A DNA stretch of 29,021 nt from Acaryochloris thomasi RCC1774 (lineage in GTDB: Bacteria > Cyanobacteriota > Cyanobacteriia > Thermosynechococcales > Thermosynechococcaceae), in assembly GCF_003231495.1 (NCBI RefSeq), contig NZ_PQWO01000037.1, positions 1-29,021 on the forward strand, in the 5' to 3' direction. Both the position numbers and the translations under genes were made by a program. Under the pieces are notes generated by a model, which was not told the origin of the DNA, made no database searches, and saw only the letters and a program-made list of their open reading frames with translations. Shown here one piece after another: positions 6,639 to 28,505 of the stretch. Position 1 is the first letter of the stretch. The number at the start of each line of letters is the position of its first letter.

Positions 6639-6706
6639 TCTCAGTAGAGGGATGATTTTAATCTTGATGGTTTACCGGGTTGATCTAGAAAGCCGAGTAT
6701 CTCGAT

Positions 6707-8646: not shown

Positions 8647-8661
8647 ACCGAAATCTCAGAT

Positions 8662-8694: not shown

Positions 8695-8800
8695 GAATAA
8701 AGGGGGGTAGCTAGATTCAGGCAGTTGCTACAGTACGTTGGGTTGTCGGAAGATAGTGTCTTTTGGGGACTAATCCTGGGTTGTTTCGTCTTGAAGGGGC

Positions 8801-11116: not shown

Positions 11117-11211
11117 GGTGAAAGGCTGAACGGGCTGTGTTCGTTTCTATTATGTCCGTGTTCAAAGATGCGATCTCATTTTCTGCGGGTCCGGTCTGAT
11201 AAAATCACTCT

Positions 11212-12043
11212 ATGTATGACAGCACCTGTAAGTTCCTCGCAGAGTCATTTTCGAGCGATTTCGCTTCGTGGCTGCTGGGTAGACCCATCGCTTTTACGAA
11301 GCTGAGTCCTTCTGAATTATCACTGGAGCCGATTCGCGCAGATGCATTGATTCTATTGGAGTCTGAAGAGTTTGTACTCCATCTGGAATTCCAAACTGAG
11401 CCAGATAAAATAATGGCCTTCAGGATGATTGATTATAGGCTGCGGGTCTTTCGCCGTTTTCCTAATAAACAGATGAAGCAGGTGGTGATCTATCTGACTC
11501 CGACAAGTTCTGAGTTGGTTTATCAGACGGTCTTTGAGATTCAGGGAACCCGGCATGAATATGAGGTTGTGCGGCTTTGGGAGCAGCCGACAGAAGCTTT
11601 TCTCAACTCACCAGGGTTGTTGCCCTTTGCTGTATTGACGCAAACATCAGACAAAGCAAGAACCTTGCAGCAAGTGGCTGCTCGGTCTGATGTAATGGAG
11701 GGTATGTGAGAGCAAAGTAACGTGGTGGCCGCTGCTGCAATTCTGGCCGGGTTATCATTGGAAAGGAGCTTTATCAATCGAGTTCTTCGCAAGGAAATTA
11801 TGCAACAGTCAGTCATCTATCAAGACATTAAAGATGAAGGCCGTGTAGAAGGGCGCGAGGAAGGGCGTCTCGAAGAAAGCCAGTCCCTCGTTCTCCGCCA
11901 GCTCAACCGCCGCATTGGGGAGATTCCGGCTGAGGCGATCGCAGATTCAATCGCTGTCTCTAGAGCAGACTGAGGCGCTGGGAGAGGCGTTGTTGGATTT
12001 TACGGAAAGGGATGATCTGGTGGGGTGGCTGGAGAGGATCTAA
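11212..12043 (+). pseudogene. Rpn-family PD-(D/E)XK nuclease/DUF4351, decayed copy (in-frame TGA plus 2-nt deletion)
   Basis: 11212..11709 and 11722..11973 lie in the same frame, separated by TGA at 11707-11709 where the intact copy has CGG (Arg). A further 2-nt deletion sits at about 11934/11935 (gctgag--gcgatcgc versus gctgagttgcgatcgc). It pushes the conserved tail QIQSLSLEQTEALGEALLDFTERDDLVGWLERI (stop at 12041-12043) out of frame. Confidence 0.8.
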
Positions 12044-12047
12044 TAGC

Positions 12048-13157: not shown

Positions 13158-13294
13158 GGGTATTTGTGTGGACGATTCTATCGTTAGGCTACCGCTCTTT
13201 TTCTTTCCCTACAACCTTCGTCAGAAGCCCCCCAAAACCCTCCGTGCTTTACATAACTCAAGGTGATGTTTACATATCGTTACTAAAAAGCTGG

Positions 13295-13323
13295 ATTTTG
13301 GCCCAAATTTTGGATGATTTTGG
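13295..13323. repeat. three phased ATTTTGG direct repeats
   Basis: ATTTTGG occurs at 13295-13301, 13307-13313 and 13317-13323, giving 12- and 10-bp phasing, roughly one helical turn. They lie in the 570-bp intergenic region between the TPR gene and the putative rep gene. Confidence 0.5.
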
Positions 13324-13474
13324 GGGTCTCCCTATACTTCAATGGAGGTGTGTCTACTTATAGATCCTGTGATCTTTTGTTTTAAACCCTTTGTCGATAG
13401 GGGCGTGAGGCGTACACTTGATCGGTAATTGAACAGAACGCGCAAGGAGGAATCTAAAACGGTCTTTAAAACCT

Positions 13475-13500
13475 AAAAAACCCGAGACTGGCATCTCAGG
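13475..13500 (-). terminator. intrinsic terminator on the minus strand
   Basis: The minus strand reads CCUGAGA-ugccag-UCUCGGG followed by UUUUUU. This is a 7-bp stem including one G-U pair. The same position would be a C-A mismatch on the plus strand, so the hairpin is strand-specific. Confidence 0.5.
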
Positions 13501-13578
13501 TCTTTAGGCAATTATTTCGCGAAGTCGCGGGAATTAACTGAAAGCTTAGCAGGCTAGATGTTAAAACCTTTAGGTCGT
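13475..13578 (-). ncRNA. candidate ~100-nt small RNA bounded by a promoter and the intrinsic terminator
   Basis: Minus-strand TTGCAC (13614-13609), an 18-nt spacer, TAAAAT (13590-13585), and a purine about 7 nt downstream (~13578). The terminator lies at 13500-13475. There is no plausible ORF inside. No expression data. Confidence 0.3.
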
Positions 13579-13766
13579 TCGCCTATTTTAAGCTGGAAAC
13601 ATGCAGAAGTGCAACCAGCGATAAATATCTCTTAACGGACGACCTCGACCTCGCTCCATCACTACGATAGGAGCCTCGACGTGTTCAACAGTGTTCGACG
13701 GCCAACGCCATTATTGGCGGTGGATTCGTGCGTCCAAAATTCAGCTCACTCTTATGGAGTCACCCC

Positions 13767-15815
13767 ATGAGAGCAGGCGCATACCCTCAGCCCTCCGACG
13801 AGCGCCGTCGCTCTCGAAGGCATCAGAAGACCTCTCGCCGCACTCAAGATCCCCTCCCCAAGAGTGCAACTGGCCGAAAGCTAGCTGAACTGTTCCCTAA
13901 CGGTTGGGATTGGATCTATGCCAGTGCTCCCCACCCCGACGAATCGCCCCAGTGGGAGACGATTGGTCAGTTTCCCTTAACGCCCATCGAGCTAGAGCAG
14001 CTTCATCAAGATCCCGAAAGCCTAGTCGGTATCCGCCCCAATGCCCAGTCGCGGTGGCTCGTGATCGACATCGACCACCACTCCCTCTACCATCCCAGCC
14101 ATAACCCCCAGTGGCTCCCCAGGATTCAGGAGATGCTGGAAGACATTGGTATCTGTAGAACTCTTCTGTGCCAGAGCAGCTTTAGTGGTGGTCTGCACCT
14201 CTACCTTCCGCTTCCCCAACCCGTCTCAAGCTACTGGTTAAGTATTTGCATCAAACTGAATCTAGAAGCCATCGGTATCAAATTAATAGGTGGTGACTGC
14301 GAGATCTATCCCAACCCCAAACGCTATGTTCCCAAAGGGCAAGGCTACAGTAAATACGCCGCCATTCGCCTACCTATGCAGCCCGAGAGTGGATTTTACC
14401 CGCTCGATGCAGACTTGAACCCCCTCCCTTGGACCCTAGATCAATGGCTAGCCGCCTTTGAGCAAGCCGCAAGCCATCAAGATATAGAAACCTTTACCCG
14501 CGCCCTCACAGATAGCCAAGAGACCTACAAACTCCGCCGTCATCATCACCCCAAAACCTTAAATAGCTGGCAGCAGCGGAATGACCAAGAGAAAGCCCAG
14601 GGCTGGACCGGCGCTGGGCAAACCAACGCCAAGCTCAAAGTTTTTGCCTGTGAAGCCCGAGTGTTCATGGGTATGGACTCCGTTGAACAAATCGCAAACT
14701 ATGTCGAAGAAACCGCCCGCAACAGCCCCGGCTTCTATCAACACAGTCGTCATGTTCATGAACTTCCCCGCAGGTGTAAAGACATCGCATATTGGGCCAT
14801 GCGCTACTACTGGCCCAACGGAACCACCCCCCTAAGAGAAACCAAATATCACAGCAGAGAGACAGCCCCCGCCGACTTCAACTATCACCAAGCCAAACGC
14901 AATGCCGCCAGCCATCGCATCAAAGAAGCCGTTACCCAGCTAGTCGAAGAGGAACGACTGCCCAAGAAGGTATGCGATCGCGCCAAGGCTATCATCGAAC
15001 TCTCTCATGTCTCTCAGCAGACCCTGTACAAGGCCCACAACAAGTCATTGTGGCACCCGAAGGAATACCAAGCTCCACCCACTTCAAAACAGTCTCAAAC
15101 CCAATCAGAGCGAGACATTACACAACAACCATCAAAAAATAGAAAAGGAGGCGTTAGCCAACCACTCAAACTCCTACTACATATAGTTATTTCACAACTC
15201 CTAATACAAGTAGGGTTTGTGTACGCACTCCTCAAAATATCAGCCGCGACTGCCCTGGCCCTCAAAGGCCAAAGGGCAGGTCAAGCGGCGCTGGGATTGC
15301 AAAATCTTGAAGAAGGGGGGGAGTCTGAGGGGGGCAGCATTGCTCATCAGAGGGCTGAGGTTGCCCACATAGAGAACTGGCAGCAGCTCCAGTTGTCGCT
15401 TCCTGAGAGGTTTCGGCGCAAGATTGAACAAGTCAAGAGTAACTTGCGATCGCCTAAGGTTGTTCAGCTGCCACTACCGCAGCAGCTAGAGACAGATCCT
15501 ACTGCTGATAACGAAGGCAGTAGGATTGGTGAAGGTTGTGATCGTCGGATCAAACCCTTGCTAATGCAACCTGAGATGCCGGTCGTTTTAACTGAGGCTG
15601 ATGTTGGGCCGTTGCGATCTCCGTCTGAAAAAGAAGAGCGTGAGTTTAGTGTTTGGTTTGATTTGGCGGTGCAGGTGGGGATAGTCTTCGATTCAGAATG
15701 GCAGGAGGGTGAGTATTGGGTCGAGGCTTTTGACGGCTGGCATCCCTTTGCAGAGATAGTGGCTACTTTTTCAGTCTCAGCTCTCAATCGAATACTAGAA
15801 AATAAACTTATATGA
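13767..15815 (+). CDS. putative replication initiator with archaeo-eukaryotic primase (prim-pol)-like motifs
   Basis: The ORF track starts at GTG 13728. I prefer the ATG at 13767, with GGAG 6 nt upstream. The motifs RWLVIDIDHH (DxD), SFSGGLHLYLPL (sGxGxH) and AAIRLPMQPESG resemble AEP motifs I-III as found in plasmid Rep/prim-pol proteins. The C-terminal half is unrecognised. The family call is from memory of the motifs only. Confidence 0.55.
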   Translation: MRAGAYPQPSDERRRSRRHQKTSRRTQDPLPKSATGRKLAELFPNGWDWIYASAPHPDESPQWETIGQFPLTPIELEQLHQDPESLVGIRPNAQSRWLVIDIDHHSLYHPSHNPQWLPRIQEMLEDIGICRTLLCQSSFSGGLHLYLPLPQPVSSYWLSICIKLNLEAIGIKLIGGDCEIYPNPKRYVPKGQGYSKYAAIRLPMQPESGFYPLDADLNPLPWTLDQWLAAFEQAASHQDIETFTRALTDSQETYKLRRHHHPKTLNSWQQRNDQEKAQGWTGAGQTNAKLKVFACEARVFMGMDSVEQIANYVEETARNSPGFYQHSRHVHELPRRCKDIAYWAMRYYWPNGTTPLRETKYHSRETAPADFNYHQAKRNAASHRIKEAVTQLVEEERLPKKVCDRAKAIIELSHVSQQTLYKAHNKSLWHPKEYQAPPTSKQSQTQSERDITQQPSKNRKGGVSQPLKLLLHIVISQLLIQVGFVYALLKISAATALALKGQRAGQAALGLQNLEEGGESEGGSIAHQRAEVAHIENWQQLQLSLPERFRRKIEQVKSNLRSPKVVQLPLPQQLETDPTADNEGSRIGEGCDRRIKPLLMQPEMPVVLTEADVGPLRSPSEKEEREFSVWFDLAVQVGIVFDSEWQEGEYWVEAFDGWHPFAEIVATFSVSALNRILENKLI

Positions 15816-15997: not shown

Positions 15998-17155
15998 CTA
16001 TCCAGCGCTAAGCGTATCTGTGTCGAGTGTGATCCATCTATTCCGCCATAGAACTCGTTTTGAAAATATACTTTGAATAAATATAGGAAATACCCAGATT
16101 TCTGAGAGGGCTGCAACCCAGAGAAAAGGCCACAATTGTTTGTCTCGAACAATAAATATATTTATAGCTGCTGCAGAAGTTATGTCGGTTACCAATGTAC
16201 AAATGACAAGAAATATTCCCAAAATTTGAAAGTTGCCACTTAATATAGTAGTTATTAAGAAAGCTAGAGACCACCAGAAAGGAATGCCTAAGAATATAGT
16301 GATTGGAGTTAAGGACGGAAAATAATATCGAATAGTCACTAGCCATCGATGAACTTGCCACCAAAGTCTTCTTAATGTATCTGTATGGTGATAAATTCTT
16401 GCAGGCTCTCTCAGTAGCTTTAATCTATAGCCCGCTTTCGTAACGGCTTGACTGAATGATATATCAAGTCCAACCTTGTTCTTCGCAATACATTCCAACC
16501 CACCAATTCTTTCAACAACTTCTCTGCGTGTCACCATGCACGAACCAACTGCTGCTGAAATTTTTTCTTGTTGAGCTGATACTCCAGAATTAATGATAGA
16601 TGCACAGACCGAGATGTTATGTAAAGCAGCAATCCAATTTTTGCTTCCGACTGCTGCAGGTACAGCAAAAGCGATACCAATTTCATCATTTGTGACGATA
16701 CTGGATGCATGTCGTGAAAGAAAGTCTGGGCTAAGTCTGACATCAGAGTCTACAAGCACAAAGACATCATTATTGCTTTTCTGAATACCTGCAATTTGAT
16801 TCTTTAGTTTTCCAGAGCCTAAACAATTATGGCTGTATACAATATGTACGGGACAGCTATTAAGACTTTCCTTTTGTATCTTCTTTAGTAGTAATGTTGC
16901 TGGATCATCACTATCTTCTAATGCAAATATAATATCGTATGTACCAGAATATTTCTGAGATAAATAGCTTTTATAGTTTTCCTCTGCACCTTGATCTAGT
17001 CCTCGAACTGGTACAATTATTGAAATGCTAGGTTTCTCATCACTCTTATTGAATGATTCTTGCTTAAAATATTTGATTGCAAGGATAAGGCCCACGAGTT
17101 TTGCTGTGATAGAAAACACTATTGGAATTACTAAGAGTAAGTTGATTCTATTCAT
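15998..17155 (-). CDS. membrane glycosyltransferase, GT2 family (ceramide-glucosyltransferase-like)
   Basis: 385 aa. N-terminal TM helix, SIIVPVRGLD, VLVDSDV (DxD) and QVHRW (the Q/RxxRW motif), plus C-terminal TM helices. AT-rich. Confidence 0.85.
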   Translation of the reverse strand: MNRINLLLVIPIVFSITAKLVGLILAIKYFKQESFNKSDEKPSISIIVPVRGLDQGAEENYKSYLSQKYSGTYDIIFALEDSDDPATLLLKKIQKESLNSCPVHIVYSHNCLGSGKLKNQIAGIQKSNNDVFVLVDSDVRLSPDFLSRHASSIVTNDEIGIAFAVPAAVGSKNWIAALHNISVCASIINSGVSAQQEKISAAVGSCMVTRREVVERIGGLECIAKNKVGLDISFSQAVTKAGYRLKLLREPARIYHHTDTLRRLWWQVHRWLVTIRYYFPSLTPITIFLGIPFWWSLAFLITTILSGNFQILGIFLVICTLVTDITSAAAINIFIVRDKQLWPFLWVAALSEIWVFPIFIQSIFSKRVLWRNRWITLDTDTLSAG

Positions 17156-17238
17156 AAATACTGAAGTATATATTTAGACTTTTTGACACTTAGTCAGATT
17201 GTCAGGATGTTGTCTATCTTTCTTCGTTCTGAAAGTTC

Positions 17239-19764
17239 ATGAAATATATTAGATTAACACCTCTTTTCCTTAATGCTTTTTTCATTAGTCTAAATGCCTC
17301 CAGTTTGGCTAAGGCTCAGGTTGTTCCTTCTGGACCATCATCAACAGTTGTCGATGTTCAGGGAAACTCAAAGGGTAGGAGGTATATCATAGATGGAGGG
17401 AAAAATTCAGGAAGCAATCTATTTCATTTTTTTGATAAATTCAATCTTAACGAAGAACAGCAGGCCGTATTTAGGAACAGTCGTAATATTAATACTATTT
17501 TTAGTATTGTTACAGGGAATACTTCTTCGAGTATTAATGGAGGTATCACTGCTAATGGTAAGGCAGATATATCCTTTTTCAATCCTAATGGTATCTTGCT
17601 CGATCGTCGTGCGATGCTGGATATTGGTGGAGACTTTCTAGCATCCACAGCAAACAAGCTTTTATTCACTGATGGTGAAAGCTTGTCGATTGAAGACCCT
17701 GTGCAGTCTAATGTGTTACTCAATCTTAGCTCAGGTGACTTAGCGAAGCTTCAGTTTCTCGGCACCTCCGGTGGCATTGTCATTAATGGTACTGGCCATG
17801 AACTTGAACAGCAGACACCTACGAGTCCAGCTACTGGTCTAGGAGATGTCGATTCAGGCTTGTCTGTTTTACCAGGACAGACTATTTCATTGTTCGCAAA
17901 TGGTATTGAATTAAGTGGGGGTAAAATTGTTGCTCCTGCTGCGACTATTTTGTTAATTAGTATTCAGCAAGGCCAAATTCCAGCTGATGGATTTGGCCCC
18001 TCGCGTAATATATCGTTCTCTGGAGAAGATAAAAAAAATATATATGCTCCAATTGTATTGGATGAGTCATCCTTGATTGATACTTCTGGATCCTCTAGAA
18101 GCTTTGTCTCAATTAAGGCGGGAAACTTACAGATTCTGGGAAATTCATTTATATATAATAGTTATACTGGGAGCGGAAGTGGTGGTACTTTGAGATTTGA
18201 TGTTTCTGGTGATTTTTTAATTGATGCTTCAAGCTTTGATGCAAACTTAAATCAATCTGCGGTTCCGGTTGAGTTTGGTGCTGGGATTATTTCTGACGCT
18301 ATTAGTGGCCGCGGTGCCGATATTGAAGTATATGCAGGTAATTTATCTATTCTTCAGGGAGCGTCTATACAGACCTTTGCAAGGAATTCTGCCTTGGGAG
18401 GTAGGTCAAGATATGATATTCAGGAAGATGTATTAATTCAAGGGGACTCTCTAATTAATCCCTTGTCTAATTCTTCTGTAATTGGATCTTCTAGCTTTGA
18501 TTCAGCGTCTGCCGGTAGCATCGAACTTAGTGCAAATAATTTATTTATTCGTGACTCTGGAATACTTTCGGCTCTGAATTTATCTAGTAATTCAAACGAG
18601 CCTGTTACAATCATTGTTGCCGATACTACTCAAATTGATGGATTGTCACCCACTTCATCTATTGGTAGTTTTCTTATCTCTTCTTCTTTGTCTACAGGAA
18701 GCTCGGCTGATATTAATCTAAGTACTAAACGCCTAAATATCTTTGATGGTGCCGTGATTGCATCTACTACTTTTGGTGCTGGTTCGGGGGGGGATTTGAA
18801 TATTAATGCTCAAGAAAGTTTATCTGTATCAGGTTTTAGGATAGATCCTTTCGATGGAACTAGATTTGATTCAGCTATTGTTGCATCTGCTTCTGCGTTA
18901 CCAGGATTTATTGCGGATCCTTTGAATTTGCCATCTCCACCTACTGGTGATGCAGGGATCGTAGATATTACTTCGCCCTCGATTAGTTTAGATAATTTTG
19001 GTACAGTGAGTTCCTTTAATCAAGGCTCTGGTTTGGGTGGAGATATATTTATTAATTCTGATGCTTTTATCTCGAATAAAGGGCGCGTTACGGCTATAGC
19101 TGCTAATGATAATGGAGGTAACATTAATTTAAGCATTGATGGCCCACTGATTCTGTCGAATCAGAGTCAGTTTACAGCTTCATCTTTGGGGGCTGGTTCA
19201 GGTGGTAATATTAGGATCCAGTCAGACTTAATTACGCTTTCAAACAGCGACATTCTCGCAAATGCAGAACAGGGGACTGGTGGGCAAATCACTATATCAA
19301 CTCAAGGACTTTTCCCTGATAATCAGAGCCGTATTTCAGCAACTTCTGATTTTGGTGTTGACGGTCAAGTTGAAATTGATGTTGAGAATAGGCCCGTCCT
19401 TGTAGATCAAGTTGAAATTCAACAGCCAAGAACTAACACTGTCAATCTAGCGTGTTCACCTGGTTCTTCTAGTGGTCAGTCATCTTTCTCAATGCAAAGC
19501 TCTGGCGGGCTTGCTGCTCAGCCAGGAAACTTCTCTCAGACGCTACCTATTGCTTCGAAGAAAGCTGCAGAGCCACAGTTGTCGTTGTCTGCCCCGTTTA
19601 TCGTTGATGAAGAGTCGGGTAAGAAAGTATTTTTGGTTGAGCCGTCTGGTTTTCATAGGCGATCTGACGGTACTCTAGCTTTTGTTGTTGAAGCACAGGT
19701 GTCCGAAGAGCGAAGTGTTCTGGTTAGTTCATCATGTTTGCCATCTTCGGCCTCAAATTCATGA
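17239..19764 (+). CDS. exported filamentous-hemagglutinin-type protein with an N-terminal TPS (two-partner secretion) domain and a beta-helix repeat body
   Basis: 841 aa. Signal peptide MKYIRLTPLFLNAFFISLNASSLAKAQ. TPS signature NLFHFFDKFNLNEEQQAVFRN..INTIFSIVTGNTSSSINGGITANGKADISFFNPNGILL. Recurrent beta-helix units: GSGSGGTLRFDV, GAGSGGDLNINA, GSGLGGDIFINS, GAGSGGNIRIQS. Confidence 0.9.
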   Translation: MKYIRLTPLFLNAFFISLNASSLAKAQVVPSGPSSTVVDVQGNSKGRRYIIDGGKNSGSNLFHFFDKFNLNEEQQAVFRNSRNINTIFSIVTGNTSSSINGGITANGKADISFFNPNGILLDRRAMLDIGGDFLASTANKLLFTDGESLSIEDPVQSNVLLNLSSGDLAKLQFLGTSGGIVINGTGHELEQQTPTSPATGLGDVDSGLSVLPGQTISLFANGIELSGGKIVAPAATILLISIQQGQIPADGFGPSRNISFSGEDKKNIYAPIVLDESSLIDTSGSSRSFVSIKAGNLQILGNSFIYNSYTGSGSGGTLRFDVSGDFLIDASSFDANLNQSAVPVEFGAGIISDAISGRGADIEVYAGNLSILQGASIQTFARNSALGGRSRYDIQEDVLIQGDSLINPLSNSSVIGSSSFDSASAGSIELSANNLFIRDSGILSALNLSSNSNEPVTIIVADTTQIDGLSPTSSIGSFLISSSLSTGSSADINLSTKRLNIFDGAVIASTTFGAGSGGDLNINAQESLSVSGFRIDPFDGTRFDSAIVASASALPGFIADPLNLPSPPTGDAGIVDITSPSISLDNFGTVSSFNQGSGLGGDIFINSDAFISNKGRVTAIAANDNGGNINLSIDGPLILSNQSQFTASSLGAGSGGNIRIQSDLITLSNSDILANAEQGTGGQITISTQGLFPDNQSRISATSDFGVDGQVEIDVENRPVLVDQVEIQQPRTNTVNLACSPGSSSGQSSFSMQSSGGLAAQPGNFSQTLPIASKKAAEPQLSLSAPFIVDEESGKKVFLVEPSGFHRRSDGTLAFVVEAQVSEERSVLVSSSCLPSSASNS

Positions 19765-22229
19765 CTAGACTAAATGTGTTGCTGTGCGCTGCTTTATCAC
19801 TTGCTTTGACAGCACAACAGGCTTTTTGTCAGCCTGCTCAGTCTGCAGCTCCTCAAGCGCTCTATGAATCTGCTTTAAGTCGTCTTGGGCAAGGCTACCC
19901 CTGGCAAGCCTCTCTTTTGCTGAACGAAGCTTTAGCCAAGTACTCCTCAATGGGAGATCGCTCAGGGGTTCTGCGGACGCGCATTGCACAGAGTGAGTTG
20001 CACCATTCACTTGGACAAAATCTGAAAGCCTGCAAGACAATGATCGCAGCACTTAATTTCAGCGTAGTGGAGATTTGTTCTACTGGCTTATCAGGAAATA
20101 AAACTCACGCGGATGCTTTCAATGCAGATTTACTGGCTCTCACTTCAGAACGGTTGCATACAAGAGCATTGACAAATCTTGGTTTTTACTTGTCTGCACT
20201 GGGTAATTTAGAGGCATCGGGGCGGGCTATTCAACGAGCTGAGGAGATGCTTGAATCACCTCAAGATGACTCTGACTCTGAGTTGCTACTAGTATTTGCT
20301 AAAGCTAATCTAGAAAAGTTTTTCTTTCTCCGGAATCAAAACCGCGCAGCAAGGGATGATAGCCCATTGCAGCAAAAACAACTTCAGAGAGAATCAGCGC
20401 AATATGCTCAGGTTGCTCTGTCCCTTTATGAGAGGCTTGCACGTACTTCAGATCCCAGCATTTCTCTTAAAGCTAGGCTGAGCTGGGTCGAGTTGTATTC
20501 AGCTATAGGTACCTGGAGTCGAAGTGTTAGTCAAAGCTCTCCACTTTTAAGTCTTCAGCGTCGAAAACGAGAGACTTACACAAGTATTTCGTCCTCTTTG
20601 AGCCATTCATCCTTTGACGATTTACCTAGAAGCGAAGCGATCTATGGAAGAATACGATGGGCTGAGTTGCAGCTAGAGAATCATAGTTCGCCCGTTGCAT
20701 TGCAGTCGATCTATGCTCTAGCAAAAGACTCTCTTCAGGATTCTAGAGAGCTAGAGAATATAAGAGGTCAATCTTTTGCGCTTGGTCTTTTGGGGCAGAT
20801 TTATGAGCGCAGTGATCAGCCATCTGAAGCTCAATCTTTTTTTCGCAGTGCCATCAACCAAGCTCAGTCTATTAATGCTTGGGATAGCGTATACCGATGG
20901 CAGTGGATGATGGCTAAAAGTCTAGCTGCCGATGGTCAACGCGATGAAGCTCTGGCTCACTATCGCATGTCTGTGCAGTCCCTGGAGCATGTTCGTAATG
21001 ACTTGTTAGCGGTCGATTCAGAGTTACAGTTTTCTTTTGCTTCGGAAGTCGCGCCAGTCTATCGGGAGTATATGCATCTACTTCTCGATAGTGTTGAAGT
21101 TAATAGTGTTGAGCCTGCATTGGAGGTATATAGCCAACTGCAAACTGCTGAGCTAGAAAATTACCTGCGCTGCGGTCGCTTGAGCAATATTTCCATTGCT
21201 TCTATCAAAGATGCGCCTTCTACCGTCTACATTCTTGATTTAGGAGATCGTTATGAGGTTATCTTACGCAAAAAGGATGGGACTTATGTTCGACATCAGC
21301 CTGAGGCTCAAGTGGTTCGAGCAAGTGTTACTGACCTACAAAACTACCAGGACACCATACAGACCTCACGATTTGACAGCAACGTCAATGCGTCGCTGTA
21401 TCTGAATACTAGGATTCTGTATGAGCAGCTATTCGAGCCATTGGAAGAGCATCTATCAGAAGGCTCTACTGTCAATTTTGTATTGGATTCAAGCTTGCAG
21501 GGTGTTCCAATCGCCTTACTGAATCGAGGTCAAGATTTCCTGATCGATGCCTATGCCCCTGCGACAATTCTTCAAGATCATCTTCTTCCTCCTCGACAAC
21601 TAGATGCTGATTCTCTGAAGGTGCTCATAGCCGGTATCTCTAGTAAAAGTCCTAGTATGAAGTCGTCAGCGGATCCCAGTTTGAAGCCACTGCCGGAGGT
21701 GCAGGTCGAGGTGACGCAGATTGCCTCCATTGCTAATAAATCGGTGTCTTTGCTCGACGAGCAGTTCACACTTGAAAAGTTGGATCAATCGCTTGGGAGT
21801 TATCCGGTTGTGCATATTGCCTCTCACGGCCAGTTCAGCTCTAATCCAAAGCAAAATTTCATCTATGCGTGGGACTCGACGCTCGGTGGGCAATACTTTC
21901 AGTCGGCATTGGAACGACAAGACCTATCGCAAAACTCAATTGAGTTGCTAGTCCTCAGTGCCTGTCAGACGGCCAAAGGCGATCCCCAGTCCTCGTTGGG
22001 ACTGGCTGGTCTATCCGTCAGGGCGGGCGCTCGAAGTACCGTGGCTTCCCTTTGGAAGGTCGATAGTGGAGCAACTACACTATTAATGAATCTTTTCTAC
22101 GACGGTCTACGGGAAGGGCTGTCGAAAGCCGAAGCACTTCAGCAGGCACAGCAGGGAATTAAGCGGCTTCCACGGTATAGCCACCCTTATTACTGGGCCG
22201 GATTTATTTTGGTTGGTAGCTGGCTGTAA
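19761..22229 (+). CDS. exported TPR-like/CHAT-domain (caspase-fold) protease
   Basis: The ORF track starts at 19734. The ATG at 19761 overlaps the upstream TGA as ATGA (translational coupling) and gives the signal peptide MTRLNVLLCAALSLALTAQQAFC. The C-terminal CHAT domain carries a His/Cys dyad (VVHIASHGQF, LVLSACQTAKGD) and the ending HPYYWAGFILVGSWL. Confidence 0.9.
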   Translation: MTRLNVLLCAALSLALTAQQAFCQPAQSAAPQALYESALSRLGQGYPWQASLLLNEALAKYSSMGDRSGVLRTRIAQSELHHSLGQNLKACKTMIAALNFSVVEICSTGLSGNKTHADAFNADLLALTSERLHTRALTNLGFYLSALGNLEASGRAIQRAEEMLESPQDDSDSELLLVFAKANLEKFFFLRNQNRAARDDSPLQQKQLQRESAQYAQVALSLYERLARTSDPSISLKARLSWVELYSAIGTWSRSVSQSSPLLSLQRRKRETYTSISSSLSHSSFDDLPRSEAIYGRIRWAELQLENHSSPVALQSIYALAKDSLQDSRELENIRGQSFALGLLGQIYERSDQPSEAQSFFRSAINQAQSINAWDSVYRWQWMMAKSLAADGQRDEALAHYRMSVQSLEHVRNDLLAVDSELQFSFASEVAPVYREYMHLLLDSVEVNSVEPALEVYSQLQTAELENYLRCGRLSNISIASIKDAPSTVYILDLGDRYEVILRKKDGTYVRHQPEAQVVRASVTDLQNYQDTIQTSRFDSNVNASLYLNTRILYEQLFEPLEEHLSEGSTVNFVLDSSLQGVPIALLNRGQDFLIDAYAPATILQDHLLPPRQLDADSLKVLIAGISSKSPSMKSSADPSLKPLPEVQVEVTQIASIANKSVSLLDEQFTLEKLDQSLGSYPVVHIASHGQFSSNPKQNFIYAWDSTLGGQYFQSALERQDLSQNSIELLVLSACQTAKGDPQSSLGLAGLSVRAGARSTVASLWKVDSGATTLLMNLFYDGLREGLSKAEALQQAQQGIKRLPRYSHPYYWAGFILVGSWL

Positions 22230-23106
22230 TCTTGTCGGCATTGCGAGAAAACAGCATCTTTCCTAGCTTAGGAAAGCCTGCGTCTTGGTATCGTTGAGAC
22301 AGTAATTGTTTTACTCTTCTATTAGCCCCTTGCTTCACGGCAAGCTCCAGACTTTCAATCGATTCGTTAAGAAGGTTGTGTGACATATATAGCCGGTCTC
22401 GTTTTATTGCTGTTTCCGACAGCGAAAGCCCTAATGTTTCTAACTGCTGATTAGCCGATCTGATTCGACTTGCTTCATCAGGAGCTACGACGGAATAACT
22501 TGCTGCGACAAAACTGATTTCCTTATCTTCGGAGATTGCCAGCACCGTTGTCTTGTATATTCTTCCAGGTGTCAGAGGAGGCGCAGATGCCGGATACTCT
22601 AGCGCCGTTCCCTTGACAGTTGACTGCCATTTGAAATTGTGACCACTGACTACGATTTCGTAGGTTGATGCGTTTGGAACTGGCTCCCACTCAAAGCGTG
22701 GCAGACGGCCTAATAAGGTATTCCCGAAGGGCCGCTGTAGCCTTCCTGCAGCCTGCTGGCTTCCTCTGGTATTTAGCTTTGCTCCCTCTCTATCTGTGCT
22801 CCACTTCTGTATATCTTCTCGTTGAGCCGGTTCACACAAGCTTGAGACTTGCCCTCTGGCGTTATAGATAATGCGACCAGTGCCATTGCAAGAAATCGTC
22901 ACGAGACGATTGTTGATAGGTGTGATGATGTCTGTCTTGCAAAGCAGAGTGCCCTTTTCGTGGACTGAATCGCCTGTCGTTAGTACTTCTGCAACTGCCG
23001 TGGAGTGTCTACATTGAGCTAAAGACTTTGGTGCTTCGATAGCTTGAGCTAGTAAAATCACAGCGGTAATTGTTCCCCCGCTAATGCAAGTCACCTTTGA
23101 ATTCAT
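22204..23106 (-). CDS. secreted protein, DUF928-like (tentative)
   Basis: 300 aa. Signal-peptide-like N-terminus. Core LPRFEWEPVPNASTYEIVVSG..LEYPASAPPLTPGRIYKTTV and a later helix RDRLYMSHNLLNESIESLE recall the DUF928 pattern often found next to cyanobacterial CHAT genes (from memory, not searched). The start ATG overlaps the kinase stop codon as ATGA. Confidence 0.55.
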   Translation of the reverse strand: MNSKVTCISGGTITAVILLAQAIEAPKSLAQCRHSTAVAEVLTTGDSVHEKGTLLCKTDIITPINNRLVTISCNGTGRIIYNARGQVSSLCEPAQREDIQKWSTDREGAKLNTRGSQQAAGRLQRPFGNTLLGRLPRFEWEPVPNASTYEIVVSGHNFKWQSTVKGTALEYPASAPPLTPGRIYKTTVLAISEDKEISFVAASYSVVAPDEASRIRSANQQLETLGLSLSETAIKRDRLYMSHNLLNESIESLELAVKQGANRRVKQLLSQRYQDAGFPKLGKMLFSRNADKITASYQPK

Positions 23107-24914
23107 GTTGCCAAAATCGCAATTTTTGCTGATGGTAGTATATCAGAATCTATCTTGGCGTTAAGTTGATCAATGTACTCTAGCTTCCACTCAACGCCTT
23201 CTGGTGTATCGCTATCGAACAGTAAACAGGCACGATAGGTTTCTTTGTCAAAGTTATTTAGCTTCTTTTGCACCTTGAGGAGTAAACAGTGGGCATCTGC
23301 GGGGGAAACAACTCTTTTTCGATATCTTTCCAGTAATTCTGATTGAATGCTAATGGAATTTTCCAGATAGATCTGCGCTGCTTCGAAATTCTTTAGCTGG
23401 AGTTCTGCCCAGCCCATGTTCTTGAAGACGGAACTCATTTCAAGCGGATCTATTTGTTGCTCCATTAGCGGCATCAATCGCTTTCTTGCGTCTGGTGCTT
23501 TACCCTCCAATAGATCTAATCTTGCTAAGTTGTTAATGGGGTAGGCTTCTTTCCCTTTACTTTCCTTTATCGATAGCTCGTAATACTGCCGGGCTTCTGA
23601 GAATTTGCTTCCCTCATCGTATACGCGGCCAATATTTGCGTAGTTTAGCCATCTTGATTCTGGAGGCCCTTTTTCAAAAGACTTTTGGTAATTCTCACGC
23701 GCACATGCAAAATCCTGTGATTGAAAGCAAGTCGTGGCTATGAAATTATATGCGAGGTGATTATCGGGATTGATTTTAATTGCTAAATCAAATTTATTCT
23801 GTGCGCTTTCGTATCTGAACTCCTTTAAATACCGCTCTCCTTCTTTCACGAGTGCTTCAGACCACTTTAGTTGTCCTATACGCACCCCAGTGCCAGCGGA
23901 AACTATCGCCAGTATTACTATCAGTAATCTTGCCCACTTAGATCCGAAGTAACGATGTCTTTCTCTAGCTTTTGGTACCGACTGGGTGAGATCGTGAATT
24001 AAGTCCTCTGTGTTTGTGGGCCGTTTTCGAGGGTTGCGCTCTAAAAGTTTGTCGATATAGTCGGCCAGTGTCTGTGATATTTGAGGGGCTTTATCTCGCC
24101 AGATCAGTTTTGCTGTTTCATCCTCTTCTGGTAGGTACATTGGATGAATGCCAGTCACCATGTGAACAATAGTTCTCCCGAGTGCAAAGAAGTCAGAGCT
24201 TGCGATCGCCCGCCCCTTTATCTGCTCTGGTGGTGCATAGCCGTGAGTGTAAATCCTGGTGATTTCAAAGTCTGTGCTATCTGTTCCCATCTCGCTGAGG
24301 TCTATGCTCAGTTTTGATAAATAGGTGTTGGTTATTTCTCGAATCGCCCCATAGTCGATGAGGACTAGTTCACCCGTTGCTTTGAGCAATATATTGTCAG
24401 GCTTTAGGTCTCGATGGATAACACCTATTGAATGCAAGATATGTAAGATTTGAGCCAGTTGTTGTAGCCAATTAAGTGCGACTTCATCTGAGATGGGCTG
24501 GTGTTCGCGGAGCCAATCGAGTAAGGTCTGTCCTTCAACATACTCCATGACCATGCAATGTAGGGTGTCCCCCTGCGGGGTCACTACCTCAAAGTAGTTG
24601 TCAAATTCTGCTTTAGGAATGCCTGGGTGGGCCAATATGGGTAAGACTCTAGACTCTCGTTGCAGTAACTCAATGTTTTTGAAGGTTCCAAACCTGCTGA
24701 TTTCCCACACCGCTTTCAATACTTTTTTGCAGTCAGGTTTCGAGAGATCGTCGCTCAAAAATACTTGTGAGTGCTCTCTTGGCTGTCCAGTCTCTAATGG
24801 TGCGATTAACCGAAAGCGTTCATTCAGGATTAGTGAAGTACCACAGCTTTCACACGTATCAAGTGTGTCGCTATTCGTTCTCGCAAGACATTTGGGATTG
24901 ATGCAATAAGTCAA
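23103..24914 (-). CDS. membrane Ser/Thr protein kinase with N-terminal 4-Cys zinc ribbon and C-terminal TPR region
   Basis: 603 aa. CINPKC..CESCG zinc ribbon. Kinase motifs VLKAV, HRDLKPDNILL, IDYG and YAPPEQ. One hydrophobic span, LLIVILAIVSAGTGV, followed by TPR-like repeats. Confidence 0.9.
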   Translation of the reverse strand: MTYCINPKCLARTNSDTLDTCESCGTSLILNERFRLIAPLETGQPREHSQVFLSDDLSKPDCKKVLKAVWEISRFGTFKNIELLQRESRVLPILAHPGIPKAEFDNYFEVVTPQGDTLHCMVMEYVEGQTLLDWLREHQPISDEVALNWLQQLAQILHILHSIGVIHRDLKPDNILLKATGELVLIDYGAIREITNTYLSKLSIDLSEMGTDSTDFEITRIYTHGYAPPEQIKGRAIASSDFFALGRTIVHMVTGIHPMYLPEEDETAKLIWRDKAPQISQTLADYIDKLLERNPRKRPTNTEDLIHDLTQSVPKARERHRYFGSKWARLLIVILAIVSAGTGVRIGQLKWSEALVKEGERYLKEFRYESAQNKFDLAIKINPDNHLAYNFIATTCFQSQDFACARENYQKSFEKGPPESRWLNYANIGRVYDEGSKFSEARQYYELSIKESKGKEAYPINNLARLDLLEGKAPDARKRLMPLMEQQIDPLEMSSVFKNMGWAELQLKNFEAAQIYLENSISIQSELLERYRKRVVSPADAHCLLLKVQKKLNNFDKETYRACLLFDSDTPEGVEWKLEYIDQLNAKIDSDILPSAKIAILAT

Positions 24915-24926
24915 GGCATTGAAACC

Positions 24927-26306
24927 TTATGCGGTCAAAGGTATCGAGTCACTTTGGCTGACTGTCGATTTTGCGTTTAGCATAACGAGTTTTTTTACGA
25001 TTTTGCTGATAGACAGTTGAAAAGGCTGATCCGATGATTTATTGATCAACGATCTGCTCTCCAATCTGGTGACTGCGGTCATCAGATCTGATCTTGAGTG
25101 GTTGCTAAAGATGCCGCACAGCTCTTTGAAGTCAATGGATTTTGGACTCATCTTAGCTAAGTTTGCAAGCACGTCTTGTTCTAGATAGCTAGATCGGCAG
25201 ATTTGATCAAGGAGTGTTTCTGTAAATGGATCATCAACGCGAATGGTATTGAGTTCCAAGAACTCAGAGGCATCTCCTCCAAAAAAATCATTGATTTTTT
25301 CAGCCACCTCCAATAGGGCATATGGATTTCCTTGATAGTCTGCGATGAGTTGCTTCCAGACTGATTCATTTTTAAGGCCAGTGTGCTTTAGCAGCTCAAT
25401 GGCATCTTTCCCTAGCCCCTCTATCTTGAATGACCGTGCTGCGAACCCATTGTTCTGTAGGGATTTCACTTCACGAATCGGCTCCTGACTGCAAAATATG
25501 AAGCAGCTTCTGTGTTGTTCCTCAATGATTCTGTGGACGAAGGAACGATATTCGGTGTGATGTCCCCAGGGATTGCTTCGGCTTGCCTCTTTCATTAATG
25601 CCTCTACCGAGTCAAAGACAATCAGCAATCTATGCTTGCGCAAGCATTGCAATAAATCATTCGTAAGTTGCGGAATATCCTTGTCAGATACTGTTATGCC
25701 AAATAGGGAGACTAATTCGGCTAGAAGTTCTGTCAGTGATGGTCCGTAGTTAAGCGACTTCCAGATGCAGGCTTCAAACTTAAATTGCTCAGGTAATTTA
25801 GGGCACATTTGGCTAACTTTGGATGCCAGGGCACTTTTTCCTATCCCAGGTGCGCCGATCAAGCTGATACATTGATTTTCCTTGATCGCGGCTGAAAGCA
25901 TCGCTATTTCTGGACCACGACCCACGAAGGAATTGACGCTTGGTGGTTGCCCTATGAGAACGGAGAATCCATCTGATTTATCAAATCTGTATTCAGTGCT
26001 GTTTTCATCCGACTTCGATGCCGAGTCCTGAATAATCTTTTCTTCAATCAGCTTTCTGTATGTATGCTTGGTAACCTCCTTAACATTCAACGCAACTGCC
26101 AGCCTTAGCCATAGCCTACGACCAACGCAAGTGCGTAAGTGATCAGCGTCTACATCGTCGAGCTTCTCTGCAATTTGCTTAAAGGTTTCCTTTTGCCATG
26201 TACCCCTGAGGACAGCTTTCTCATCCTCGTTCAGAGGTGTATCGCCACTGTCGAATAGATACGTGTTGGTTAGCTGTAGAGCATCTTTAATATCAACAGG
26301 AGCCAT
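24927..26306 (-). CDS. STAND-class P-loop NTPase (NB-ARC-like) with N-terminal HTH-like module and no repeat sensor domain
   Basis: 459 aa. FVGRGPEIAMLS..ISLIGAPGIGKSALA (Walker A), RLLIVFDSVE (Walker B), YQGNPYALLEVAEKI (the GxP/ARC-like motif). The N-terminus LNEDEKAVLRGTWQKETFKQIAEKL resembles the HTH module preceding many cyanobacterial NB-ARC/WD40 proteins. It lies 12 nt upstream of the kinase gene. Confidence 0.85.
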   Translation of the reverse strand: MAPVDIKDALQLTNTYLFDSGDTPLNEDEKAVLRGTWQKETFKQIAEKLDDVDADHLRTCVGRRLWLRLAVALNVKEVTKHTYRKLIEEKIIQDSASKSDENSTEYRFDKSDGFSVLIGQPPSVNSFVGRGPEIAMLSAAIKENQCISLIGAPGIGKSALASKVSQMCPKLPEQFKFEACIWKSLNYGPSLTELLAELVSLFGITVSDKDIPQLTNDLLQCLRKHRLLIVFDSVEALMKEASRSNPWGHHTEYRSFVHRIIEEQHRSCFIFCSQEPIREVKSLQNNGFAARSFKIEGLGKDAIELLKHTGLKNESVWKQLIADYQGNPYALLEVAEKINDFFGGDASEFLELNTIRVDDPFTETLLDQICRSSYLEQDVLANLAKMSPKSIDFKELCGIFSNHSRSDLMTAVTRLESRSLINKSSDQPFQLSISKIVKKLVMLNAKSTVSQSDSIPLTA

Positions 26307-26647: not shown

Positions 26648-26860
26648 TTATTCATCGCCTTTCGGATTCCAGTTCTCTGGCATATCCTCTAGTAGTTCCA
26701 ATGATTCAGTTTCGCGTAGCTTTGACTCAATGGCATCTCTTGCAAGCTCACTATCCGATTTTCCAAGCTTTTGTCCTAACCATGCAAAACGCCTGTAGTA
26801 ATAATCAGACAAATAGGTTGTTACTCGTGGCCTCTTTGCTGGCACTGGTTTCATTTGCAT
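26648..26860 (-). CDS. ribbon-helix-helix (CopG/Arc-like) DNA-binding protein
   Basis: The ORF track starts at 26902. I prefer the ATG at 26860 (MQMKPVPAKRPRVTTYLSDYYYRRFAWLGQKLGKSDSELARDAIESKL). This gives a beta-strand (RVTTYL) followed by two helices, the typical RHH layout. Confidence 0.65.
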   Translation of the reverse strand: MQMKPVPAKRPRVTTYLSDYYYRRFAWLGQKLGKSDSELARDAIESKLRETESLELLEDMPENWNPKGDE

Positions 26861-27120
26861 TTGTACAGAAGTTATTCTTGCATCTTGTAACGTACATAGC
26901 ACTCTGAATGGACTTAGGTGACACTCTGGAGTAACACCATGCTACTATAGCGATGTATTTACAAGTCCATTTCATTAATGACCCCTATATGCTTTTTCTG
27001 CGACCAAAAGCTTGCAGCGTTCTGCTTGTCGGCCATTAATTCGCGGTTACCTTGTTTGCCACACAACTGTATAAAGAGGCGATAGACCAACTAAATTAGT
27101 CAAATAACATCCCCACTACC

Positions 27121-27161: not shown

Positions 27162-27251
27162 CACATGTATTCACACGCATGGAGATCTCTATGTTACCCG
27201 TTTCCATCGCGGCTGCAGTCTGCGGTCGTCCACCCGCGCAGGGCTAGAGCG

Positions 27252-28505
27252 ATGACTTTTGCTGCTATCCCCGCCAATCTAAAGCCTCATCTGCAGCACA
27301 GGCTTTTGTCTGCAGATGAGGAACTGTTACTTGTGATTAAAGCGCAGTCAAGTGATGTTCGTGCGCGGAATCGTTTGCTCCGGCATAACCTTCGTTTTGC
27401 GGTGGAGCAAACGAAAAACCTTTGTGAATGCTACCTTCACCTGGATTTTGACGAGGGGTTCGATGCCGCCATCATTGGCCTGAATAAAGCCATTGATGGG
27501 TTTGACCCCACTCTGGGTTTTCGCCTAAGCACCTACGCGTACACTAAGGTCCTGTACGAGATACAGAAATTGATGGCGAAGGTTGTCACCTACACTAAAC
27601 ACCGTAGTGACAAACCCGTTGAGGAGCTGGAGCTTAGTCATCAGCCACTCCCCCTGGAACAATTAGAGCGTCAGGAGCGATTAACGGAACTCCGGCAAAA
27701 ACGCCGTGATATCTGGGGGGCACTCCGCAACTTCCCCAAACAGATCCGCAAGCTGATTGTCTGGCGTTTGCTCGGTCACTCTTATAAGGATCTTGGTGAG
27801 CGTTTCGGGTTCTCCAGGCAGACTGCTAGCAATTACTATCAGAAGTACTTTCCTTGTTTCCTGCAGGCCCTATTCCCCGCCCAAGTCTGCACCCCACCCC
27901 GCCGATCGCTCCGCCGCTTGCTGACGCGCCGTACTCCGAAGCTGCGCCTAACAACAGCCACTGTCCGCCCCAAACGATCGCATCGTACACCCCAGAACGA
28001 TCTCACCTCCAAAGAGTGCCGGTGGCCGCAAGTCCTGCGGAAGATCTCGCGTTCAGCCAGCGTTGCAATCACACCGCTTCTTTGCAAGCTACAGCACTCT
28101 AAGGTCAACAGCCGATCGTCAAAGCCCCAGGTTGCGATCTTACGCAGGGCACCCCAATTGTTGTTAGCAGCAGCTACACGCCTGTTTTCCACTGTTTTCC
28201 AGTTACGACCCATTGCTCAGTCATCGAACTCCGAGCTGCCGTCAGCTACGGTTGGGCTGCAGGAGGTCCGGGGTTCTCCTGGCTCTAGTCTTGCCGGTAG
28301 ATTTTCTCGTGTTGCTCTATTGATCCTAGAGGCAGTTCCCCCTGATAGCCTCACAATCCAGCTTTCCGATCGCATTGAACTACAACAGTCGCGATCGGTC
28401 GTTACGGGGGATGCGACACCCCCGCACATCTCCCGCTTATTCTTTTTACCCGTACTGATTTTGGAGATTATGCTGTGTTTCCTCGCTTTATTGGCCTGTT
28501 GTTGA
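27252..28505 (+). CDS. sigma-70-family RNA polymerase sigma factor (regions 2 and 4) with an unverified ~200-aa C-terminal extension
   Basis: The ORF track gives 27165..28505; ATG 27252 is an alternative start. Region 2: NLRFAVEQTKN..DFDEGFDAAIIGLNKAIDGFDPTLGFRLSTYAYTKVLYEIQK. Region 4: IRKLIVWRLLGHSYKDLGERFGFSRQTASNYYQKY. Only the first ~230 residues look like a sigma factor. The true 3' end is uncertain (see findings). Confidence 0.65.
   Translation: MTFAAIPANLKPHLQHRLLSADEELLLVIKAQSSDVRARNRLLRHNLRFAVEQTKNLCECYLHLDFDEGFDAAIIGLNKAIDGFDPTLGFRLSTYAYTKVLYEIQKLMAKVVTYTKHRSDKPVEELELSHQPLPLEQLERQERLTELRQKRRDIWGALRNFPKQIRKLIVWRLLGHSYKDLGERFGFSRQTASNYYQKYFPCFLQALFPAQVCTPPRRSLRRLLTRRTPKLRLTTATVRPKRSHRTPQNDLTSKECRWPQVLRKISRSASVAITPLLCKLQHSKVNSRSSKPQVAILRRAPQLLLAAATRLFSTVFQLRPIAQSSNSELPSATVGLQEVRGSPGSSLAGRFSRVALLILEAVPPDSLTIQLSDRIELQQSRSVVTGDATPPHISRLFFLPVLILEIMLCFLALLACC

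Follow-up and report, generated by a model that had tools for sequence, protein, structure and literature searches.

The window analysed here, which is the entire 29,021-bp contig of Acaryochloris thomasi RCC1774, carries five adjacent genes that form a conserved and as yet uncharacterised module of two operons. Its products are a TpsA-like exoprotein with a two-partner secretion (TPS) domain, a caspase-fold CHAT protease with tetratricopeptide repeats (TPR), a 300-aa protein referred to here as P300, a membrane Ser/Thr kinase and a STAND NTPase; a glycosyltransferase gene that stands beside them is not part of the unit. On three or more types of replicon, copies of this module adjoin genes for plasmid replication or partition, and its association with the replication region of megaplasmids, which is previously unreported, is very regular. 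As to function, we propose that the five genes encode an envelope-spanning, outside-in signalling pathway of cyanobacterial megaplasmids that would end in a DNA-binding switch, an idea which may well be right but which we put forward tentatively, on the basis of sequence.

The open reading frames (ORFs) of the window lie at exactly the coordinates named in an earlier description made by eye from the DNA letters (the sequence-only reading), and its picture of two tightly packed convergent gene sets holds. The plus-strand set consists of the gene for the TpsA-like exoprotein (841 aa, 17239-19764) and that for the TPR-CHAT protease, which is predicted to be exported (19761-22229; NCBI start MTRLN). 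The minus-strand set runs from the gene of a cytoplasmic STAND NTPase of 459 aa with helix-turn-helix (HTH) and NB-ARC parts (24927-26306), through that of the membrane Ser/Thr kinase (23103-24914, with a TTG start), to the gene of P300, likewise a predicted exported protein (22204-23106; NCBI protein C1752_12235). Inspection of the sequence revealed an ATGA overlap where TPS stops and CHAT starts (MTRLN, 19761), another where the kinase gene ends and that of P300 begins, and a gap of 12 nt from the STAND stop to the TTG start of the kinase. By these ATGA overlaps, CHAT appears to be translationally coupled to TPS, and P300 to the kinase.

We scanned species-representative genomes with a CHAT alignment, which gave 80 loci bearing TPR-CHAT relatives, and mapped the gene families onto these loci by local hidden Markov model (HMM) and phmmer searches. 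Loci in which TPS, CHAT, P300, kinase and STAND stand together, 21 in number, were designated class A, and the other 63 TPR-CHAT loci class B. All five families co-occur in each of the 21 class-A loci, and unsupervised clustering recovered exactly these five; STAND itself was recovered in 20 of them, the contig of the remaining one (L002) stopping inside the kinase gene. The hosts belong to Nostoc, Nodularia, Komarekiella, Leptolyngbya, Coleofasciculus and Acaryochloris, together with metagenome-assembled genomes (MAGs) of Chroococcales and Synechococcales. CHAT identity is 30-40% in loci from genome contigs and 41-64% in the metagenome loci L001-L003. The closest CHAT homologue (64% identity) lies on a metagenome contig, in a locus laid out like the six genes of the window except that an unrelated GT28-type enzyme takes the place of the GT2 glycosyltransferase. 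In the locus of the 41% homologue TPS, ShlB and CHAT converge on P300 and the kinase, and on a second contig of the same sample a P300 homologue stands between the kinase and the CHAT-TPS pair. A P300 relative of 25% identity also follows STAND and kinase genes, with ParB and ribbon-helix-helix (RHH) genes nearby. Even where gene order has changed, the set stays whole: the STAND gene is inverted but in place in some class-A loci, and the rearranged locus L015 retains all five genes.

These families are thus co-localised in many other genomes; had they not been, this would by its own criterion have refuted the sequence-only reading. It needs to be mentioned that most of them come from Nostocaceae, so that the effective count of independent observations is below these raw counts; still, the Acaryochloris, Leptolyngbya and Coleofasciculus cases, along with the three replicon contexts described below, argue against simple shared ancestry. 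The earlier statement that no function has been described for this combination also stands, as searches of the available literature turned up no account of, or experiment on, TPS, CHAT, P300, kinase and STAND together, and alr7232, the kinase gene of Nostoc PCC 7120, is listed there only as a TPR kinase.

One further property of the gene order concerns the junction of the two operons. In the window the convergent CHAT and P300 genes share 26 nt (22204-22229), and a 3'-end overlap of 4-59 nt is seen in about 15 loci (besides the window, L001, L004-L007, L009, L011, L013, L016, L018, L019 and L085-L087), while CHAT and DUF928 genes likewise abut or overlap in the class-B loci L021, L036 and L054. 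Such an overlap leaves no space for terminators, and it may entail mutual antisense or transcriptional interference.

The plasmid link emerged from the next large gene that follows STAND. In class A this gene encodes a DUF3854 protein, 0.85-2.9 kb off and always transcribed away from the module, which in RefSeq bears the name 'plasmid replication protein, CyRepA1 family'. CyRepA1 stands next to STAND in 13 class-A loci versus 1 of the 63 class-B loci (Fisher p 1e-10, taking a class-A denominator of 17 loci with enough flank, estimated by eye). Homologues of P300 occur on 51 plasmids in PLSDB (33 from Nostoc, 7 from Acaryochloris, 6 from Leptolyngbya, the remainder from others), and 19 of the 51 are typed conjugative. 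In 39 of the 51, CyRepA1 lies 4.4-7.5 kb from P300 (median 5.1 kb), a distance that kinase and STAND fill; examples are pCC7120alpha, T. variabilis ATCC 29413, two plasmids of N. punctiforme PCC 73102, and A. marina pREB2, where a sigma-70-family gene stands between STAND and CyRepA1. A different context is provided by pREB6, which reportedly is without CyRepA and CyRepX homologues: here a complete module with TpsB abuts a ParB-ParB pair and a homologue of a 695-aa ORF of the window. The CyRepA1 papers that were consulted leave the neighbouring module unmentioned.

In the window no CyRepA1-like product is encoded at the end, where the last ORF, cut by the contig boundary, is that of a zinc-ribbon/transmembrane protein. 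The 695-aa ORF (13728-15815, plus strand) is a candidate plasmid replication protein and may represent a new plasmid Rep family: it shows prim-pol-like motifs by eye (VIDIDHH, FSGGLHLYLPL) and a marginal LigD prim-pol match (E 0.058), with no Pfam, NCBIfam or PHROG match, and its homologues occur on 74 cyanobacterial plasmids, the one on pREB6 following ParB-ParB. Further to the left lie a ParA-type ATPase gene (5066-5800, plus strand; Pfam AAA_31/CbiA/ParA) and a ParB-like gene (5841-6638, plus strand; PHROG ParB-like, 6e-12), which appear to form a partition pair of plasmid type. Because of these ParA, ParB-like and Rep-like genes the contig looks plasmid-derived, although recA (1621-2670), which might then be plasmid-borne, lies on it as well; it may be either a plasmid or a chromosomal island.

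One of the plasmid copies is damaged. In pCC7120alpha of Nostoc PCC 7120 (locus L085, 245.5-248.7 kb) the kinase gene alr7232 is split by a TnpB insertion, and this copy of the module is probably disabled. The insertion leaves the 4-Cys prefix of the kinase as a separate ORF of 50 aa, and a second, identical TnpB copy lies between STAND and CyRepA1.

The domain assignments made by eye for the products (GT2, TPS, CHAT, Ser/Thr kinase with TPR, NB-ARC) were all supported by Pfam or NCBIfam, NB-ARC also by its predicted fold. The plus-strand operon begins with a protein that matches the TPS domain in both Pfam (PF05860, 113 bits vs a cut-off of 33.5, 2.6e-32) and NCBIfam (TIGR01901, NPXG, 66.9 bits vs 29.1, 1.1e-18). 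It is laid out as an N-terminal signal, the TPS secretion domain with an NPNG motif and a beta-helix passenger, and its N-terminal hydrophobic segment terminates in AKA-Q according to the hydropathy heuristic that we used for all export and transmembrane calls. Neither Pfam nor NCBIfam shows a toxin domain, or anything else, beyond TPS, and no small immunity ORF lies downstream, the next gene being that of the CHAT protease. A gene for the outer-membrane partner TpsB (ShlB) is present inside the cluster in 8 of the 21 class-A loci, as it is on pREB6. The CHAT protein matches PF12770 with 185 bits (2.4e-54) and contains TPR; the catalytic His and Cys, within HIASHGQF and LSACQTA, do not vary among 21 homologues, and the protease thus appears to be catalytically intact.

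P300, the last product of the minus-strand operon, had been called a secreted DUF928-like protein. It gave no Pfam match, even at E=10, an exact look-up was without result and a word-index homology search returned only P300 itself, while a full HMMER scan yielded a family of 663 representatives at E≤1e-3. Its members begin with a signal-like stretch, carry a domain in which four Cys are conserved, and share a highly conserved core. The conserved Cys quartet fits an oxidising compartment. The AlphaFold2 (AF2) model (pLDDT 85) consists of an FN3-like sandwich followed by TPR-like hairpins, and both Foldseek and PDB profile searches matched FN3 domains, the C-terminal domain of MtxA and TPR proteins. 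The Pfam model of DUF928 (PF06051) is matched by only 2 of 60 family members, and weakly (6e-4); when the P300 profile was compared with 33 DUF928 proteins by hhalign, the probability was 84% (E 7e-6) over 146 columns, spanning both the FN3-like and the helical parts. Position speaks for the same relation, as the P300 gene lies directly downstream of a membrane transducer gene and convergent to CHAT, and DUF928 genes are placed equivalently in class B. We thus regard P300 as a remote homologue of DUF928, on evidence that is suggestive rather than certain; remote homology could be retained from the earlier label, while membership of the Pfam family, for which P300 is below threshold, could not.

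Some further observations concern this family. The giant proteins P0132, P0167 and P0229 (981-2376 aa) contain 10-13 repeats of the FN3-like core (query aa 123-200), so the unit also occurs elsewhere as a tandem repeat module. Distant members (E ~1e-12) lie on short contigs with TPR neighbours only. A FecR-like fold was considered for the Cys-rich N-domain and rejected, as neither Pfam nor Foldseek supported it. Proteins with DUF2887/DUF4351 are encoded next to P300 in the metagenome loci L088 and L089, in the latter between P300 and CHAT, and a DUF4351 protein is also encoded in the window, at 2693-3529.

The kinase matches PF00069 (112 bits, 5e-32), TPR_2 (1e-11) and NF045510, the last covering a 4-Cys prefix. 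The 4-Cys zinc-ribbon prefix and the Hanks domain are predicted to lie in the cytoplasm, and one transmembrane (TM) helix (about aa 326-345) separates them from a TPR region outside it. The four Cys of the prefix are kept in all 21 orthologues, as are the beta3 Lys, the alphaC Glu, the HRD..K..N and D(F/Y)G motifs and the Glu of APE, the window protein carrying the DYG variant; judged from these residues, the kinase should be catalytically intact. In PADLOC-DB v2 it matches the PD-T4-6 single-gene kinase models (E 1.6e-93), which are broad, and the other five proteins of the region have no meaningful match there.

The STAND protein passes the Pfam cut-off for NB-ARC (33.6 bits vs 23.5), and its Walker A motif GxxGxGKS and Walker B Asp are invariant. 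The order of its parts is HTH, NB-ARC nucleotide-binding domain, helical part and winged helix, the first ~100 residues being assigned to PF26355 (HTH_VMAP-M9) in the precomputed Pfam record of this exact protein. A distant relative, P0275, bears HTH_3/HTH_31 in the place of HTH_VMAP-M9. By eye the N-terminus resembles LuxR or sigma region 4, and there is a very weak Sigma70_r4 match (E 0.2). The chain stops behind the winged helix, at aa 459, and no repeat sensor (TPR, WD40, LRR) was matched. HTH is its sole non-NTPase domain: the searches revealed neither a nuclease nor TIR, nor a pore-forming domain or an effector of another kind. Its AF2 model (pLDDT 85) retrieved NRC3, ZAR1, CED-4 and Apaf-1 as top Foldseek matches (E 1e-12 to 1e-10), with Orc1/Cdc6 ranked behind them.

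The hydropathy heuristic gave a consistent picture of where these proteins would reside. TPS, CHAT and P300 have N-terminal hydrophobic segments with A-x-A/Q-like ends, the kinase has one TM segment from about residue 326, and STAND has none; this pattern is common to ~20 orthologous loci, and the signal-like N-terminus of CHAT is kept in its orthologues. The placement first made by eye, with the NTPase and the kinase domain in the cytoplasm and the kinase TPR, P300, CHAT and TPS outside, agrees with these data, as does the proposed export of CHAT and of P300, whose N-terminal signals are conserved.

Further insight came from class B, in which TPS was found in 43 of the 63 loci, a membrane protein of CHAT/caspase-CHASE2 type in 39, DUF928 (1e-51) in 33, DUF1822 in 10 and ShlB in about 10. 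A recurrent order, TPS>TPR-CHAT> <DUF928<CHASE2-caspase<DUF1822 (for example L021, L022, L036 and L060), mirrors the TPS>TPR-CHAT> <P300<kinase<STAND of class A. As both classes share the exported trio and have different transducers, the membrane transducer and its cytoplasmic partner are exchangeable behind a constant periplasmic front end. What class B has in the inner membrane corresponds to the EACC2-caspase systems, with DUF1822 and an ECF sigma factor, that Kaur, Iyer, Burroughs and Aravind reported in 2021 (PMC8195603), a paper in which none of TPS, POTRA and DUF928 is mentioned. No CHASE2, cytoplasmic caspase or DUF1822 is encoded in the window, where a sigma-70/ECF-type gene is adjacent to the module.

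Several other features surround the five genes. The membrane glycosyltransferase (GT2/GT21, 15998-17155, minus strand; Pfam GT2 78 bits, Glyco_transf_21 8.6e-22, TIGR03472, HpnI-like, 154 bits and thus far under the cut-off of 310) does stand beside TPS as first described, but it is an unconserved accessory and not a member of the unit, as among class-A loci it is unique to the window. An unrelated enzyme of GT28/UDPGT type is found next to the TPS gene in three loci (L001, L013 and L018), and a P450 gene beside it in 4-5 class-A loci. On the other side, divergent from the STAND operon, lies the accessory gene of a sigma-70/ECF-type sigma factor (27165-28505, plus strand; TIGR02937, 55 bits vs a cut-off of 42.9). 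A homologue (30% identity, E 2e-10) is placed in the same way on A. marina pREB2, with STAND on one side and CyRepA1 on the other, and such a gene is present in locus L024 too. The sigma factor has a C-terminal extension of ~220 aa with a strongly hydrophobic tail (…FFLPVLILEIMLCFLALLACC). It is followed by an ORF cut by the contig end (28710-29021, plus strand), tentatively an accessory, which encodes a 4-Cys zinc ribbon (weak zinc-ribbon Pfam matches, ~7e-4) and then a TM helix. The two may constitute a membrane-tethered sigma/anti-sigma pair; no anti-sigma domain was detected in the window, where this truncated ORF is the only such element.

Small DNA-binding genes lie just upstream of STAND in several loci, namely RHH_5 genes in L001 (12287-12481) and L088 (1949-2137) and a weak Cro/C1 HTH gene on pREB2 (L086, 7886-8167). 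A window ORF of 84 aa (26648-26902, minus strand) looked RHH-like by eye; Pfam gave no support for it, and it was set aside.

The region had originally been noticed as an AT-rich island poor in HIP1. Its GC content (15998-26306) is 0.434 vs 0.489 in the left flank and 0.496 in the right. Of HIP1 (GCGATCGC) there are 13 copies in 1-15453 and a single one in 15998-26306, the chance expectation for the whole window being 0.36. The depletion of HIP1 in the region (binomial p 0.019) is real but only modestly significant. The compositional dip thus exists; however, the island is shallow, as the trough (0.37-0.41) is deep over GT2 and TPS only, and the region is better termed a plasmid replication-region module. 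Another, strongly AT-rich patch is seen at 7.0-9.0 kb (GC 0.36, no HIP1 at 7282-8646), where the ORF 7282-8646 (plus strand) encodes a 454-aa all-TPR protein that has no tie to the module as far as tested. Consensus scans of the window for promoters and terminators gave fewer sites than shuffled controls, and Rfam had no match in it.

On these grounds we can formulate the pathway in more concrete terms. The TpsA-like protein would cross the outer membrane via a TpsB that some loci encode in cis and that would have to be supplied in trans here. An event at the surface or in the periplasm might then trigger cleavage by CHAT of TpsA, P300 or the kinase ectodomain, with P300 possibly serving as a ligand or co-receptor of the TPR ectodomain. 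The kinase would phosphorylate or recruit STAND, and the nucleotide-dependent assembly of the latter could put its HTH onto DNA, the likeliest targets being the module's own promoters or the adjacent plasmid replication/maintenance region. In Acaryochloris-type loci the neighbouring sigma factor may also act. The input could be envelope damage or phage attack, and thus a defence-inducing role would be compatible with this wiring. A more specific version, in which the module tunes its own plasmid's replication, partition or transfer through a chain from surface proteolysis to the kinase, on to HTH-NB-ARC and finally to a rep/par control region, seems to us rather improbable; if true, it would mean that a replicon senses the condition of its host's envelope or that of nearby cells.

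Several points weigh against an outside-in pathway of this kind. The export and TM calls on which its geometry depends come from the hydropathy heuristic alone, no TpsB (ShlB/POTRA) ORF was found within the window, and no conserved repeats, iteron-like or operator-like sites were detected in the STAND-sigma intergenic region. Moreover, the kinase of PCC 7120 is split and its plasmid persists, which indicates that the module is not essential for replication, and about half of the Nostocales-type CyRepA1 plasmids and several Acaryochloris ones are without it. The adjacency to rep genes could reflect selection for stable inheritance of useful cargo and not regulation of the replicon.

The sequence-only reading had left the choice between a signalling and a conflict system. 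A conflict or defence system, either anti-phage or acting by programmed cell death, would sense attack through STAND or the envelope parts, and the kinase and CHAT would be the effectors that arrest or kill the cell, to the benefit of filaments or plasmid-bearing kin. STAND NTPases and caspase-fold proteases are indeed hallmarks of conflict systems in multicellular bacteria (PMC7159879, PMC8195603), the sister set of caspase-CHASE2, DUF1822 and ECF was read as a conflict system by Kaur et al. 2021 (PMC8195603), and a TPR-CHAT protein, DdvA, controls a CRISPR-Cas operon (PMC6061681). Besides, the module is plasmid-borne like many defence systems, and its kinase resembles PD-T4-6; those models are broad, however, and no other component was matched by PADLOC. 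What makes this explanation unlikely, though as the main rival it deserves attention, is the predicted topology: an extracytoplasmic CHAT can neither be activated by a cytoplasmic STAND nor cut cytoplasmic targets, and STAND itself has HTH as its sole extra domain, with no effector domain and no repeat sensor, while the TPS protein is devoid of a toxin domain. With CHAT outside and a STAND that has HTH and is without sensor repeats, the classical route to death by STAND-activated caspase is topologically excluded, and of the two halves of the original alternative it is signalling that is favoured.

It is also conceivable, if distinctly unlikely, that the cell surface is where the system does its work, TpsA being an adhesin or a factor of contact-dependent recognition or competition that is matured or released by CHAT, with the kinase and STAND regulating expression; the plasmid would then gain kin discrimination, mating-pair contact or exclusion. 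TPS-domain proteins, exported by TpsB, are classically adhesins, cytolysins or toxins of contact-dependent inhibition (CDI). In accordance with such a role, TpsB is encoded within a number of clusters, the adjacency of TPS and CHAT in 43 of 63 class-B loci persists even without the kinase arm, conjugative plasmids are among the carriers, and glycosyltransferase or P450 genes sometimes flank TPS. The passenger is, however, short (~840 aa) and has no recognisable toxin/immunity pair, and a purely surface-based function gives no reason for the constant position beside a rep gene and leaves unexplained both the constant co-translation of the DUF928-like protein with the transducer and the swap of the transducer as a unit. 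We find it very hard to accept, finally, that two unrelated systems, the TPS/CHAT pair and the STAND/kinase/P300 operon, merely inherited their adjacency on a plasmid backbone. The two sets are separate convergent transcription units, TPS and CHAT are widespread without the kinase arm, and the synteny might be ancestral, class A being drawn mostly from related plasmids of Nostocaceae. Against this, the co-occurrence is complete at ~30% protein identity and across orders, the pairing holds in three different replicon contexts, inversions of STAND and the rearrangement in L015 did not break up the module, and the sister cluster has the same convergent pairing with a different transducer.

In the module a caspase-like protease and a two-partner-secretion protein, both exported, are brought together with a kinase of eukaryote-like type and an NB-ARC switch. 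From the shared front end with its exchangeable transducer one can also derive a concrete hypothesis of what DUF928 and extracytoplasmic CHAT proteases do. As apparently intact copies exist in the tractable strains N. punctiforme PCC 73102 and T. variabilis ATCC 29413, alongside the natural kinase-disrupted copy in PCC 7120, the idea is directly testable.

Among systems already described, classical two-partner secretion (FhaB/FhaC, ShlA/ShlB, HMW1/HMW1B, CdiA/CdiB) shares with the module a signal peptide, a TPS domain with NPNG and a beta-helical passenger, as well as a TpsB of ShlB type in related loci. The module differs in its short passenger, which comes without a toxin, haemolysin or immunity gene, and in the window there is no TpsB. 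To our knowledge, classical TPS systems have no CHAT protease partner, whereas in the module CHAT is the invariable one. Features of contact-dependent inhibition (CdiA/CdiB/CdiI) are not seen, as the TpsA of the window has only 841 aa and nothing beyond its TPS domain.

On the cytoplasmic side, STAND has in common with CED-4 and Apaf-1 the NB-ARC P-loop, the helical and winged-helix core and intact Walker motifs, and with CED-4 also the lack of a repeat sensor. MalT and AfsR combine a STAND core with HTH, as the STAND of the module does. It differs from such STAND regulators and from NB-ARC apoptotic proteins in its N-terminal HTH_VMAP-M9, in its size of 459 aa and in having no CARD or other death-fold adaptor, and, unlike known STAND regulators, it is always encoded next to a membrane kinase. 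Craspase (type III-E, gRAMP/Cas7-11 with Csx29) shares the TPR plus CHAT architecture. Csx29 resides in the cytoplasm, where a Cas effector binds it, whereas the protease of the module has a predicted signal peptide, and Pfam and NCBIfam scans found no cas gene families among the window ORFs.

A further parallel is the DdvS/DdvA pair of an ECF sigma factor and an anti-sigma factor. DdvA, the anti-sigma factor of this M. xanthus pair, has an extracytoplasmic TPR-CHAT domain proposed to be a signal sensor, and it is a precedent for a CHAT sensor outside the cytoplasm (PMC6061681). Shared features are an extracytoplasmic TPR-CHAT in a trans-envelope pathway and a transcriptional output, and in the window and on pREB2 a sigma gene also lies beside the module. 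In DdvA, TPR-CHAT is fused to the membrane anti-sigma factor, while in the module it is a separate exported protein and a Hanks kinase spans the membrane.

The nearest relatives remain the class-B clusters, a commoner sister group in cyanobacteria, which likewise encode first a TpsA-like protein and then TPR-CHAT, both exported, face a convergent operon ending in a DUF928-type gene, and have an optional TpsB and sometimes a sigma factor nearby. The transducer is what sets the two apart, being a TPR-TM-Ser/Thr kinase with an HTH-NB-ARC STAND in the module and CHASE2/cytoplasmic caspase with DUF1822 in class B. In addition, the DUF928-type protein of the module has gained a Cys-rich N-domain and fails the Pfam model, and the module is rep-adjacent, as only 1 of the 63 sister loci is. 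The module is, in this comparison, a variant of the cyanobacterial multi-component systems of STAND/caspase/TPS type.

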